DNA of 64,000 bases, from sequence record PZ154897.1. One strand, written 5' to 3'. Source of the stretch: a phage. The notes below the pieces were generated by a model. The model worked only from the letters and a program-made list of their open reading frames with translations, searched no databases and was not told where the DNA came from. The position numbers and the translations under genes were made by a program. The stretch's first letter is position 1. The number at the start of each line of letters is the position of its first letter. Positions 32,970 through 63,992 of the stretch are shown here, one piece after another.

Positions 32970-33386
32970 TTAAATGTAAATATTTTTGCCGTAATACTTG
33001 TACCAGTGTGGCTTCATTAAAATTTTTTCATCGAGTCGTTGTTGACTCAACCTAATAGCTGATTTGCATGGATTATAATCATTTTTCCATTCTACTGGAA
33101 TATCACTGATGTCAGGAACTTCAGTATCTTTTATACTAAACCCGCGTTTTAAGCATTCCGTTATAATGTCTGATTGACGCTTTCGCAAAAATTCTAACTT
33201 ATCGTAAAAGAACGTAACATGACCAGAACCTAAAATAAACTCGGAAGATATTTTAAAATCTTTAACTCGTTTACCATTTGCCACGTGTTTACGAATTATA
33301 CCAAAAACACGTGGCAATTCACGGTATTCTGCGATTAAATGCTGATCAGCAAGTTCAGATACTAAAGTCAAATTAATACGAGTCAT
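32970..33386 (-). CDS. denV: Endonuclease V (pyrimidine-dimer DNA glycosylase)
   Basis: 138 aa; [29 protein letters not shown], recognised as T4 endonuclease V. Confidence 0.9.
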
Positions 33387-33446: not shown

Positions 33447-33977
<531 letters not shown>

Positions 33978-37299: not shown

Positions 37300-37563
37300 T
37301 TATTTCATATTATTAAAATATTCTTCTGCGATTTCGTCGTTATCATGGTAAACTTTAGAAGACAGTTTAACATAACCTTCAGCAGTGAACATGTTAATCA
37401 CAACCTTTACAGTATACCACTGACCGTCTTCATTACCCATTACTGCGTAAGTTTCAAACATCGGATGGTCAGGACCGATAACTTTAATATCATTCACTGT
37501 ACGACCGAAATCTTCTGAAACACATTTCATAAAGAAGTTGAACAGTTCGCCGTAATTATCCAT
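37300..37563 (-). CDS. Hypothetical protein, about 87 aa
   Basis: ORF track 37300..37575 (TTG) trimmed to ATG 37563 with SD GGAG. Confidence 0.45.
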   Translation of the reverse strand: MDNYGELFNFFMKCVSEDFGRTVNDIKVIGPDHPMFETYAVMGNEDGQWYTVKVVINMFTAEGYVKLSSKVYHDNDEIAEEYFNNMK

Positions 37564-37604
37564 TTCATTCTCCAAGTTATTTTCTGTATCAGTAGTTGAT
37601 AGTT

Positions 37605-37636
37605 GTATAGTACCATGGAAAAACGGGGATGTAAAC
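37605..37636 (-). promoter_or_regulatory. T4-type early promoter with conserved leader cassette
   Basis: gtaaac at 37631-37636, 17-bp spacer, gtatagtacca at 37605-37615. Confidence 0.5.
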
Positions 37637-37765
37637 AGTTTTGTGAAAAATTTTTTTAAAAAGTTTTAGGGAATTCTAGGGTGGGAAGGGGCAATTAAAG
37701 GATAGGATAATATATTATAAAGGGTAGAAACTAAATGATGCCTAGAGAGGTCCAGAAAGGTCTAG

Positions 37766-37800
37766 ATACCAAAAAGCCCCAACCTTTCGGTCGGGGCTAA
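37766..37800. repeat. 35-bp perfect direct repeat (copy 1) carrying a terminator hairpin
   Basis: ataccaaaaagccccaacctttcggtcggggctaa; identical to 38309-38343. Confidence 0.8.
37769..37798 (-). terminator. Intrinsic terminator (GCCCCGACC-GAAA-GGUUGGGGC then U5)
   Basis: Hairpin 37776-37797, plus-strand A5 at 37771-37775; perfect 35-bp copy at 38309-38343. Confidence 0.6.
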
Positions 37801-37805
37801 GAATG

Positions 37806-38264
37806 TTATTTGATTTGTTTAGCAGACCAAATGCGGTCTTTAATAATTTTTTGGATGTCTTCAACATACTCTAGGTCATGAGCATGTGGATTATCTTTAA
37901 AACTATAAGCTCGCGCAAGTTTCTGGCCTTCGGTCTTAATTACCAAAAGTTCTTTAAGAATTGCTTCATACCTAGAAATAATTCCTTTAGCAATATTTTT
38001 TTCTTGTGCTGCTTTAGGGTCAGCCTTAGGAGCAGGTTTACCAGAAGGTTTTTCGAAAGCCGCACCAGTAGCAACCAGGCTTTTCCAGGCGGTGGTAACA
38101 TAGTTACCCACAAAGCCTTCAGCTCTCATATCGTCGTAGAACTTGTACCGAGATTCGTCAGAAGCATCTTTATAAGAATATTTACCAGCTTTAATAGCAG
38201 CAGTTGCTACAGCGCGAACATCTGAAGCGGATGCTTCATTTAAAAATTGAGCATATGATTTCAT
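37806..38264 (-). CDS. Internal-protein-like capsid-targeted protein (CTS MKSYAQFLNE with L-N-E protease site)
   Basis: 152 aa, Ala/Lys-rich; N-terminus resembles the T4 internal-protein targeting sequence MKTYQEFIAE; late promoter TATAAATA just upstream. Confidence 0.5.
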   Translation of the reverse strand: MKSYAQFLNEASASDVRAVATAAIKAGKYSYKDASDESRYKFYDDMRAEGFVGNYVTTAWKSLVATGAAFEKPSGKPAPKADPKAAQEKNIAKGIISRYEAILKELLVIKTEGQKLARAYSFKDNPHAHDLEYVEDIQKIIKDRIWSAKQIK

Positions 38265-38303
38265 CTTATTTCCTGTTTTAATTCGTGATTTAATATACTA
38301 CTA

Positions 38304-38311
38304 TATTTATA
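38304..38311 (-). promoter_or_regulatory. Late promoter box TATAAATA
   Basis: Plus-strand tatttata at 38304-38311, 40 nt upstream of the ATG at 38264. Confidence 0.5.
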
Positions 38312-38343
38312 CCAAAAAGCCCCAACCTTTCGGTCGGGGCTAA
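38309..38343. repeat. 35-bp perfect direct repeat (copy 2) carrying a terminator hairpin
   Basis: Identical to 37766-37800; the two copies bracket the CTS-protein gene 37806..38264. Confidence 0.8.
38312..38341 (-). terminator. Intrinsic terminator ending the tRNA/stable-RNA transcription unit
   Basis: Hairpin 38319-38340 with A5 at 38314-38318; identical to the copy at 37769-37798. Confidence 0.6.
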
Positions 38344-38344
38344 A

Positions 38345-38655
38345 GCCTTGCGGCAACCTTGTCGGGGTTCCACCTGCTAAGGCAAGTGTTTGTACGAAAC
38401 GCCGGGATTCGAACCCGGTTATTAAGCAGTTGACGCTACTTAATATTTTTAAAAGGCCATATCTCGACCATATCCGAACGTTCCGTCAAAAACGCTACTC
38501 GGCTTACGGCAAAGATATTTCCTCGAATCGATAATTCGGTGCGCCGTTTCTGCTGTGATGTAAGAGGGCATCAACAAATCATAAAGATTTATTAACGCAA
38601 TTCCTTACCCAGGGAACATCAGTCCGACGACTTACCGGTAGCGACCCGGTTTCTT
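38345..38655 (-). ncRNA. Probable small stable RNA region (position of T4 species 1 and 2 RNAs), includes a tRNA-like T-arm
   Basis: No ORF; lies between tRNA-Arg and a terminator; cggg-attcgaa-cccgg T-arm-like element at 38403-38419; boundaries not determined. Confidence 0.3.
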
Positions 38656-38658
38656 GTC

Positions 38659-38735
<77 letters not shown>

Positions 38736-38738
38736 TAA

Positions 38739-39404
38739 TTAAAATTTCATTTTTCGACCTTTAAACCATCCTTCTGGAATTGGGTCAGTTTTCTTAATAC
38801 GTTTAGAAACTTTTTCATCTAATGAATGAATCCACATCATACCAAATTGGGAATTCTTTTCGCCCTGTTGGTGTTTATTTCTGGCGTGAGATTCTTTCAT
38901 TTTATTAATAGTTTCAGGAGTATGGGTCTTACCCAAGAAAGATTTAATATTTAAAAATTTCTCTCTATACTTAGGATTATCCCAAAGCTGTTTAAACCTT
39001 TCTGAACCCATTTTACGATATTTTTCTTTAAGGTCTGGGTCGTTCTCAAATCTGGTTTTAAAAGCAGCAGCCCCTTTTAAGGAAGCTTCTTTCTTTTTAT
39101 CCAAATATTCTTTAGTGTTTAAATGGTCCCAACCACCTTCACCACCTAATTTCAAATTATAAACATCAGGGCGCTTTAAAAACTCTTCAGTCACAATATT
39201 CTTTTCTGACTCAAACATAGAGGTTTTATCGTCAAAGAACTCTAATATTTCTTTAGAGAAATTTTCTATACCATACTTGTCTTGGGCTCTTTTTAATAAT
39301 TTACCAGAACCCATATATCCATCATCTAAATTTTCGGTAGAATGAGCGCCTATATAGATTTTATTATTAATTTTATTTGTTATTTTATAAGTGTAATGGA
39401 ACAT
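38739..39404 (-). CDS. segB: GIY-YIG homing endonuclease SegB in the tRNA cluster
   Basis: 221 aa; MFHYTYKITNKINNKIYIGAHS; splits the tRNA cluster as in T4. Confidence 0.85.
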   Translation of the reverse strand: MFHYTYKITNKINNKIYIGAHSTENLDDGYMGSGKLLKRAQDKYGIENFSKEILEFFDDKTSMFESEKNIVTEEFLKRPDVYNLKLGGEGGWDHLNTKEYLDKKKEASLKGAAAFKTRFENDPDLKEKYRKMGSERFKQLWDNPKYREKFLNIKSFLGKTHTPETINKMKESHARNKHQQGEKNSQFGMMWIHSLDEKVSKRIKKTDPIPEGWFKGRKMKF

Positions 39405-39445: not shown

Positions 39446-39517
39446 TGGCCCTGGGTGGAATTGAACCACCATCTGGCGATTATGAGTCGCTTGCTTGAAC
39501 CTTCCAGCTACAGGGCC
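39446..39517 (-). tRNA. tRNA-Ile (anticodon CAU)
   Basis: Perfect 7-bp acceptor ggccctg/cagggcc; anticodon loop CUCAUAA; T-arm GGUGG-UUCAAUU-CCACC; CCA not encoded. Confidence 0.75.
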
Positions 39518-40992: not shown

Positions 40993-41038
40993 TTGATAGG
41001 GTAATAGTATCACACTACTACCCAGAAGTAAACAACTT
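40993..41038. repeat. Repeated early-promoter cassette, copy A (ttgatagggtaatagtatcaca ... gtaaacaactt)
   Basis: About 45-bp unit also found at 41285-41330 and 41621-41667. Confidence 0.7.
41005..41033 (-). promoter_or_regulatory. T4-type early promoter (cassette copy A)
   Basis: gtaaac at 41028-41033, 17-bp spacer, tagtatcaca at 41005-41014. Confidence 0.5.
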
Positions 41039-41261
41039 ATTCCGCTCCAGCAGCTTTCAAAAGCTTTTTAAGATTAACAGTGCCACGAGCAGAAAACGTG
41101 ACTTTACCATCCTTTTCACTAATAGAGCCAGTTAACTTAGAAAGTTTATCGCTAGGAATTTTTTTAAAATCACTTAATGTACCATCAAAAGTTTTCGTAA
41201 CAATTGGTAGTTCATCTTCATGTCTTTTAGCTTCATTGATAAATTCTTGATATGTTTTCAT
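41037..41261 (-). CDS. Internal-protein-like capsid-targeted protein (CTS MKTYQEFINE)
   Basis: ORF track 41037..41273; likely start at ATG 41261, giving the canonical CTS with I-N-E protease site; about 74 aa. Confidence 0.55.
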   Translation of the reverse strand: MKTYQEFINEAKRHEDELPIVTKTFDGTLSDFKKIPSDKLSKLTGSISEKDGKVTFSARGTVNLKKLLKAAGAE

Positions 41262-41284: not shown

Positions 41285-41330
41285 TTGATAGGGTAATAGT
41301 ATCACAACTAAACCACCGTGTAAACAATTT
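41285..41330. repeat. Repeated early-promoter cassette, copy B
   Basis: Near-identical to copies A and C. Confidence 0.7.
41297..41325 (-). promoter_or_regulatory. T4-type early promoter (cassette copy B)
   Basis: gtaaac at 41320-41325; tagtatcaca at 41297-41306. Confidence 0.5.
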
Positions 41331-41601
41331 ATTTTAAATAAATTGCATATTTTTTATAACCAGCCGTCTCGTGACGCAGACCTTTTTCATTAGCAAAGCG
41401 TTCAATATTATTAATTTGATTCTGATCAAGTTCTGAAATATCAAATACAAAAAAGTTTCGTTTATTTCCTAACGTTACATGATTCGTCAAATCAATGTTA
41501 TAAAGATGATTTATATTATCAATCATAGTCTTAACAGATTTGCTAATTTTTACTTCTTCATTAAGAGCAGATTCAACGATAAACTCTTTGAAAGTTTTCA
41601 T
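41329..41601 (-). CDS. Internal-protein-like capsid-targeted protein (CTS MKTFKEFIVE)
   Basis: 90 aa; CTS-like N-terminus with I-V-E site; SD AGGAA. Confidence 0.5.
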   Translation of the reverse strand: MKTFKEFIVESALNEEVKISKSVKTMIDNINHLYNIDLTNHVTLGNKRNFFVFDISELDQNQINNIERFANEKGLRHETAGYKKYAIYLK

Positions 41602-61430: not shown

Positions 61431-63132
<1,702 letters not shown>

Positions 63133-63173
63133 TAAATATTATAAACTAATTAAAGCCCAGATTAGGAGAAATC

Positions 63174-63992
63174 ATGTTTGGTTATTTTTATAATTCGTCT
63201 TTTAGACGATATGCTACCTTGATGGGCGATTTGTTTTCAAATATCCAAATCAAACGTCAGTTAGAATCTGGTGATAAGTTTATACGTGTTCCTATTACGT
63301 ATGCATCAAAGGAACACTTCATGATGAAATTAAATAAATGGACATCGATAAATTCGCAAGAAGATGTAGCTAAAGTTGAAACTATTCTACCTCGTATAAA
63401 TTTACATTTAGTTGATTTTAGCTATAATGCTCCATTTAAAACAAACATTTTAAATCAGAATTTACTGCAAAAAGGCGCAACTTCTGTAGTATCACAGTAT
63501 AATCCATCTCCTATTAAAATGATTTATGAATTGAGTATCTTTACTCGTTACGAAGATGATATGTTTCAAATAGTTGAGCAGATTCTTCCATATTTTCAAC
63601 CTCATTTTAATACAACCATGTACGAACAGTTTGGAAATGATATTCCATTTAAAAGGGATATTAAAATTGTACTGATGTCTGCTGCTATAGATGAAGCTAT
63701 AGATGGAGATAATTTATCTCGTCGTAGAATTGAATGGTCACTAACATTTGAAGTAAATGGGTGGATGTATCCTCCAGTAGATGATGCAGAAGGATTAATT
63801 CGTACTACTTATACAGATTTTCACGCCAACACAAGAGATTTGCCTGATGGCGAAGGTGTTTTTGAATCTGTAGATAGCGAAGTTGTTCCTCGAGATATTA
63901 ACCCAGAAGACTGGGATGGAACAGTAAAACAAACTTTCACTAGCAATGTAAATAGACCAACACCGCCAGAACCTCCTGGCCCAAGAACATAG
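63174..63992 (+). CDS. 15: Tail sheath stabiliser / connector gp15
   Basis: 272 aa; SD AGGAGA. Confidence 0.9.
   Translation: MFGYFYNSSFRRYATLMGDLFSNIQIKRQLESGDKFIRVPITYASKEHFMMKLNKWTSINSQEDVAKVETILPRINLHLVDFSYNAPFKTNILNQNLLQKGATSVVSQYNPSPIKMIYELSIFTRYEDDMFQIVEQILPYFQPHFNTTMYEQFGNDIPFKRDIKIVLMSAAIDEAIDGDNLSRRRIEWSLTFEVNGWMYPPVDDAEGLIRTTYTDFHANTRDLPDGEGVFESVDSEVVPRDINPEDWDGTVKQTFTSNVNRPTPPEPPGPRT

Follow-up and report, generated by a model that had tools for sequence, protein, structure and literature searches.

A probable capsid-targeted internal-protein gene on a terminator-bounded cassette at a third locus in a T4-like bacteriophage

Introduction

An open reading frame (ORF) that begins with the capsid-targeting signal of the T-even internal proteins, yet stands apart from the loci at which ip genes are described, raises two questions: whether it encodes such a protein, and how it is gained, lost and exchanged at its site. 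We address both for a T4-like phage (Tequatrovirus; record PZ154897.1), of which a stretch of 64,000 nucleotides, here called the window, was analysed. Arbiol et al. (2010) limit ip genes to two loci with early-promoter-based repeats. The ORF studied here lies between e.8 and rnaC, which is neither the ipI nor the ipII/ipIII locus; this location is a matter of positional habit and not of functional requirement. We consider it likely that the ORF forms a cassette for a capsid-targeted internal protein and that this cassette is shuffled by way of its flanks; it is probably an unnamed internal protein of the T4 type at a third ip locus.

Results

The ORF and its surroundings

An initial annotation had described a 152-aa ORF at 37806..38264 starting MKSYAQFLNE, bracketed by two repeats. 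Re-reading of the sequence bore out the coordinates and the start; the strand, missing from that description, is minus, and the N-terminus reads MKSYAQFLNEASAS. The features of the site are as follows.

37300..37563, minus strand: e.8 (98.1% identity to T4 e.8; PHROG 2678)
37607..37635, minus strand: early-type promoter of e.8 (TTTACA, 17 nt spacer, TG-TACTAT), read from the sequence; downstream boundary of the site
37766..37800, minus strand: downstream repeat copy, or terminator 2; predicted intrinsic terminator of the cassette
37806..38264, minus strand: the ORF (PHROG 2280), 152 aa; supported by profile match, dN/dS and structure model
38235..38264, minus strand: putative capsid-targeting propeptide MKSYAQFLNE, codons 1-10; motif kept across the family
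38270..38274, minus strand: Shine-Dalgarno sequence AGGAA, by direct reading, 5 nt before the ATG
38304..38311, minus strand: putative T4-type late promoter TATAAATA, with its first 3 nt inside the upstream repeat
38309..38343, minus strand: upstream repeat copy, or terminator 1; stem 38341-38318 plus U-run, aligning to the single terminator of T4
38393-38531, minus strand: rnaC, small stable RNA (blastn to T4 rnaC, 97.8%)
38538-38654, minus strand: rnaD, small stable RNA (blastn to T4 rnaD, 94.1%)
38659-38735, minus strand: tRNA-Arg (ARAGORN, Rfam)

Read along the minus strand, the order is thus tRNA cluster, segB, tRNA-Arg, rnaD, rnaC, terminator 1 with the late promoter, the ORF, terminator 2, the early-type promoter and e.8. 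The tRNA transcription unit has these two small stable RNAs at its 3' end and is closed by the upstream terminator; Rfam searches returned tRNAs only, with no family for rnaC or rnaD. Positions 37300-38800 have matches in 783 phage records, with vB_EcoM_SYGD1 ranking first at 97.9%. In the record of phage fPS-90, a 'predicted early promoter' stands where the window has that of e.8. In the neighbouring tRNA cluster, the gene at 39446-39517 was called tRNA-Met(CAT) by ARAGORN, while the RB32 record gives its equivalent as the tRNA-Ile of T4, which once modified reads AUA.

A conserved family of hypothetical proteins

The dN/dS of the ORF is 0.07-0.12 at dS ~1, and we therefore take it to be a real gene under purifying selection. 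Searches of Pfam and NCBIfam with the product gave no meaningful match, and over residues 1-152 it matches PHROG 2280 ('unknown function') with E = 1.1e-53. Homologs in Klebsiella and Yersinia phages, and a second gene found at the same site in some relatives (cassette B, below), match this family at 1e-53 to 1e-59. The family is narrow (8 clusters among 1.84 billion representative proteins); tblastn found a homolog of the ORF in 512 phage records, all of them labelled 'hypothetical protein'. The sequence of the gene was known beforehand: it is in the databases, and its repeat is annotated in RB32, whose GenBank record describes the gene as 'flanked by 34 bp imperfect direct repeat'.

The GenBank entry RB32ORF133c is the same gene as the ORF of the window (83% amino acid identity), and RB14ncORF136c corresponds to the cassette B paralog. 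These two, together with RB69ORF148c/149c, all match PHROG 2280 at about 1e-53; among the annotations examined they are hypothetical, with no link to internal proteins. More than 30 internal-protein variants are said to have been given by Comeau et al. in 2007, and this family may be among them. A literature search by RB32 locus tag, protein accession and PHROG identifier produced no match.

Across genera, all family members carry the motif [YF]-x-[EQ]-F-L-x-E, while neighbouring residues vary. The homolog of a T4-like Klebsiella phage (start MKFKEFLAEASS) comes directly after tRNA genes, behind a terminator whose T-run leads into TATAAATA, and a Yersinia Tegunavirus has two tandem paralogs, likewise behind a terminator and TATAAATA. 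Such synteny suggests that the gene is old at this site and was lost by T2, T4 and T6. Across genera, PHROG 2280 varies less than do the classical internal proteins, which are hypervariable; this fits a structural role as well as a role in an arms race.

The alleles of 157 aa (RB32, L001, 4006-4479; fD1, L009, 3943-4416; fPS-90, L005, 2683-3156) contain a 15-bp tandem duplication, which doubles the LNE-A motif in frame (MKSYAQFLNEAVLNEAS) and gives two possible protease sites. Frameshifted and truncated alleles exist as well, for example in SfPhi01, as do natural fusions of part of the gene to a trna.3-like protein (P0011) or to NudE (P0012); P0016, P0017, P0008 and P0010 are also listed, and P0011, P0012, P0016 and P0017 come from metagenomes. 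The fusions and truncated alleles point to frequent deletion and decay around the gene.

The targeting signal

We found that the likeness of MKSYAQFLNE to the T-even capsid-targeting sequence and prohead-protease site, on which the initial annotation had relied, holds at the four experimentally relevant residues. In the signal of IPIII, its first ten residues (MKTYQEFIAE), targeting depends on positions 4 and 7 and processing on positions 8 and 10, according to the review PMC9026906, which summarises Mullaney & Black (1996). The ORF has the aromatic residue at position 4 and the phenylalanine at position 7 (Y4, F7), and it fits the motif of the prohead protease gp21, in which Ile or Leu at position 8 and Glu at position 10 precede a small residue (L8-N9-E10, Ala11; a predicted site). 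The signals of T4 IPI, IPII and IPIII and of the T-even variants Ip4-Ip10 likewise comprise ten residues, with Tyr or Phe at 4, Phe at 7, Ile or Leu at 8 and Glu at 10, and precede a small residue (Repoila et al. 1994; Mullaney & Black 1996; Silas et al. 2025). The predicted mature product of 142 aa, 15.7 kDa and pI 9.36 is small and basic, as are IPI, IPII and IPIII (pI 9.0, 9.6 and 9.65, respectively).

The strict motif fits three ORFs across the six frames of the 64-kb window. The other two lie at the ipI locus and match PHROG families that are annotated as internal proteins (41037-41261, minus strand, MKTYQEFINEA; 41329-41601, minus strand, MKTFKEFIVES). Each of them comes after an early-promoter repeat of ~40 bp (GTTTAC...GTGATACTATTACC), copies of which lie near 41035, 41325 and 41660. 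Repeats of this kind are classical for ip loci and are seen both at the ipI locus of the window and at the ipII/ipIII locus of T4. The phage of the window is without ipII and ipIII, which in T4 stand between denV and the lysozyme gene e; here denV (32970-33386) adjoins e (33447-33941). Beside denV in fD1 lies g129 (L009 record, 62785-63258), a 157-aa 'head protein' found in virions, at the position of ipII/ipIII in T4; it may be another internal-protein variant.

Unlike the signal, the remainder of the product has no counterpart among the classical proteins. With blastp and hhalign against IPI, IPII and IPIII, the propeptide (~10 residues) aligned and nothing beyond it, and there was no fold similarity to them. 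This is no argument against function, because Ip1, Ip2 and Ip3 are mutually unrelated too. We also considered whether the ORF replaces IPIII. This was rejected, since PhAPEC2 matches both the IPIII query and the ORF query; T4-like Klebsiella phages, as a group and not necessarily in the same record, likewise appear in both match lists.

In Yersinia phage fD1 the ortholog g140 (157 aa, start MKSYTQFLNEAVLNEASS) was detected in purified virions, in a dataset of low specificity (PXD026812): of 277 phage proteins, 113-137 were called particle-associated, among them DenV, lysozyme e and NudE. After a gp21 cut, its predicted neo-N-terminal peptides would be AVLNEASSTEIQAVAK or ASSTEIQAVAK. The virion proteome of the Klebsiella phage ValerieMcCarty gave no peptides of the PHROG 2280 family, and the paper on the fPS phages contains no proteome of virions.

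Structure and the possibility of a DNA-associated core protein

An AlphaFold model of the product, built on a small alignment (pLDDT 78), begins with a disordered propeptide, continues with an N-domain of three helices (residues 13-66) and a flexible linker rich in Lys, Pro and Ala (67-82), and ends in a long C-terminal helical hairpin (83-149). Its fold matches are generic helical hairpins, and the function can therefore not be read from the structure.

The layout bears on the strongest competing explanation, namely that the product is packaged and acts as a structural or DNA-associated core protein, for example in charge neutralisation or in DNA condensation and ejection, with no specific defence target. 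The composition of the linker (KPSGKPAPKADPKAAQEK) is kept in all homologs, a mature pI of 9.4 suits association with DNA, and lysines of T4 internal proteins touch DNA phosphates, according to a review (PMC3012670). Moreover, the family keeps its position across several Tevenvirinae genera and has a dN/dS of ~0.025 in the C-domain, unlike a fast arms-race gene. We nevertheless regard a purely structural role as rather unlikely. The gene is dispensable, as T2, T4, T6 and RB5 are without it and frameshifted alleles are known, and about 15 of 50 N-domain residues differ between alleles. Furthermore, IPII and IPIII were long seen as DNA-binding fillers and turned out to be specific GmrSD inhibitors (PMC12373910).

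Terminator repeats and a late promoter

The two 35-bp repeats that the initial annotation had placed around the ORF are 100% identical copies (ATACCAAAAAGCCCCAACCTTTCGGTCGGGGCTAA, exact over 35 bp), at 37766-37800 and 38309-38343, and the 28-nt core of the repeat has two matches in the window against 0.00 expected (100 shuffles). Each copy, as had been proposed, contains a terminator: on the minus strand it reads AGCCCCGACC-GAAA-GGTTGGGGCT followed by TTTTT, predicted to fold into a hairpin with a 10-bp stem, a GAAA loop and dG of -22.1 kcal/mol (z ~-4), a strong intrinsic terminator. The upstream copy would end the tRNA/rnaC unit and shield the cassette from early transcription.

The late promoter that had been assigned to the cassette, TATAAATA, is present at 38311..38304 on the minus strand. 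The downstream copy is without it and has GGTATCTAGA in place of GGTATAAATA. Within the 64-kb window TATAAATA is not enriched (12 found against 10.9 expected), so the argument for the promoter rests on its conserved position in relatives. Indeed, TATAAATA comes directly after the terminator T-run in the window, in RB32, in fPS-90 and in the Klebsiella (L007) and Yersinia (L006) phages, and the fPS-90 record annotates the site as a 'predicted late promoter'. The retention of the propeptide motif and of the promoter position amid differing sequence supports function better than the raw count of TATAAATA does.

Gain and loss of the cassette

The gene is missing in T4, T2 and T6 alike, and RB5 is also without it. 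In T4, a gene-free spacer of 284 bp separates e.8 from rnaC, and it aligns to the window as two segments, positions 1-236 to 37564-37800 and positions 202-284 to 38309-38392, and the 35-bp overlap of the two alignments is exactly the repeat; T4 thus equals the window minus one repeat copy and all DNA between the copies. T2 matches in a single piece (805 bp for 809 query bases), and in T6 the gap from e.8 to tRNA-Arg is 550 bp, compared with 549 bp in T4. Because the single terminator of T4 aligns to both copies in the window, we interpret the difference as a precise cassette indel.

Four states of the site occur in relatives: empty, cassette A (the ORF described here), cassette B, and A together with B. 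Cassettes A and B are taken as remote paralogs because both match PHROG 2280 at about 1e-53, and the targeting signal is present in B as well. In a spread sample of 60 records, ~6 were empty, 21 had A only, 3 had B only and 9 bore the signature of A+B, which was verified in DalCa only. Phages fPS-90 and DalCa have two genes and three terminators, the cassette A homolog being 157 aa and the cassette B gene 187 aa (start MKTYAEFLTEAAK). RB14 has cassette B only, and its upstream junction is that of the A+B form minus the DNA between terminators 1 and 2.

Cassette B ends with a different terminator, CCCTATC...GATAGGG (L005, fPS-90, 1952-1991; L008, ~670-700), which has GGGCTTTTTGGTATCTAGG alone in common with the terminator and flank of cassette A. 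Upstream of cassette B there are mere near-matches to the late promoter, AATAAATA or GATAAATA.

These comparisons bear on the alternative that the 35-bp repeat is simply a pair of efficient terminators, each kept for regulation and with no part in cassette gain or loss. Both copies look functional as terminators with clear insulating roles, and the upstream and downstream terminators of the Klebsiella phage are unrelated. We consider this explanation very unlikely, however, since the identity of the repeats runs past the hairpin into the flanks for 35 exact bp, in T4 the left flank of copy 1 meets the right flank of copy 2 precisely at the single copy, and taking the segment from terminator 1 to terminator 2 out of fPS-90 gives RB14. 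For recombination in T4, moreover, a homology shorter than 50 bp suffices (Singer et al. 1982, cited in PMC2839356).

Exchange of alleles

The initial annotation had ascribed insertion or exchange of the cassette to recombination between the terminator repeats. Its account of presence and absence stands, with T4, T2 and T6 empty and the T4 copy aligning to both copies of the window, but alleles are not exchanged via the terminators only. Compared with RB32 and fD1, the flanks of the window are 97-100% identical and the interior, about 38255-37870, only 55-85%, with identity back at 100% from the final ~65 nt of the ORF through the terminator; taken as a whole, the ORF is 77.7% identical, compared with 95-99% for the flanks. 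The breakpoints thus fall in the 5' UTR and propeptide-coding region and at the 3' end of the ORF. Synonymous divergence within the ORF is near saturation (dS about 1), and from this, together with the dN/dS of 0.07-0.12, we conclude that old alleles of a selected gene were swapped into near-identical backbones. As judged from these alignments, the terminator repeat accounts for presence and absence, and allele replacement makes use of the wider conserved flanks.

The 5' breakpoint in the signal-coding region, along with the unspecific nature of the fD1 virion mass-spectrometry dataset, could also be taken to mean that the product is an ordinary late non-virion protein whose likeness to the signal persists solely in the DNA, where it would give this gene and the ip genes a common patch for recombination, a highly improbable reading given that Klebsiella and Yersinia homologs keep the amino acid motif with different nucleotides and neighbours (MKFKEFLAE, MLEYSEFLKE, MLKFNEFLAE), that the LNE-A motif is duplicated in frame in the 157-aa alleles, and that the fD1 ortholog stands above the strict virion threshold.

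Discussion

The ORF resembles the T-even internal proteins in that its product is small, basic, Lys-rich and dispensable, and in that it is variably present in close relatives and flanked by repeated regulatory DNA. It differs from them in standing at a third locus, from e.8 to rnaC, in being flanked by GC-rich intrinsic terminators and a canonical late promoter instead of early-promoter repeats, and in belonging to a family that is missing from T2, T4 and T6 and conserved across genera; it is also homologous to none of them beyond the propeptide.

The arrangement is likewise reminiscent of the promoter-early stem-loop (PeSL) cassettes of T4-type phages (Arbiol et al. 2010; Comeau et al. 2014) and of the PeSL-like elements of T-even ip loci, where a promoter/stem-loop motif stands on both sides of a small accessory ORF. 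As with PeSL cassettes, there are indels between close relatives with junctions inside the motif, for which homologous recombination has been proposed. In contrast to PeSL, the promoter of the cassette described here is late, not early or sigma70-like, and accompanies the upstream copy only, and the stem-loop is a strong terminator.

We propose that the cassette works in the following way. The upstream terminator would, as far as its sequence indicates, stop early and middle transcription arriving from the tRNA unit, and the overlapping TATAAATA, a conserved motif, would drive gp55-dependent late transcription. The ten-residue signal, with Y4 and F7 as key residues, would then carry the 152-aa precursor into the scaffolding core of the prohead. 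There gp21 would cut after L8-N9-E10 to leave a 142-aa basic protein that stays with the packaged DNA, a step to which virion mass spectrometry of the fD1 ortholog lends weak support. The protein would be injected with the DNA at the next infection and, by analogy with known internal proteins, may neutralise a host defence against modified T-even DNA, for instance a type IV restriction enzyme, of the GmrSD type or another. The two identical terminators serve as portable homology for recombination; comparative genomics shows that, jointly with the 5' UTR/signal region and the 3' end of the gene, both of them conserved, they permit the cassette to be lost or gained and its alleles to be swapped.

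Which defence might be countered can be approached from the internal proteins already assayed. Ip1, Ip2 and Ip3 each inhibit a distinct GmrSD type IV enzyme; ip4-ip10 were assayed too, with no confirmed activity, and several active GmrSD groups are without a known inhibitor (Silas et al. 2025, PMC12373910). In the supplements of that study we found neither the N-terminal sequence of the ORF product nor further Ip names. Bas37_0260, a signal-bearing protein encoded at the ipI locus, is an McrBC inhibitor (2025 preprint). Because Ip1, Ip2, Ip3 and Bas37_0260 all inhibit type IV restriction, an anti-defence role of this kind is plausible for the ORF product, and we put it forward, tentatively and at less than even odds, as the leading guess. 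A broader proposal, somewhat doubtful as a whole, is that PHROG 2280 constitutes an unrecognised family of packaged and injected proteins of the Tevenvirinae, occupying a third ip locus by the tRNA genes in one or two shuffling cassettes and inhibiting a defence covered by no known internal protein. The target would be, for example, a GmrSD group without an inhibitor in Silas et al. (2025) or another modification-dependent nuclease, and the family would have been overlooked because it is missing from the classical phages T2, T4 and T6.

A widespread, unnamed, signal-bearing protein is thereby a concrete candidate inhibitor of type IV restriction, which can be assayed with existing methods because T2, T4 and T6 are naturally without the gene and provide ready null backgrounds. 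In more than 500 genome records, 'hypothetical protein' could become 'putative internal (capsid-targeted) protein'. For the T4-like phages, the locus suggests that ip genes also occur outside the two loci of the literature, and that units of terminator and late promoter can fill the shuffling role ascribed to early-promoter stem-loops.
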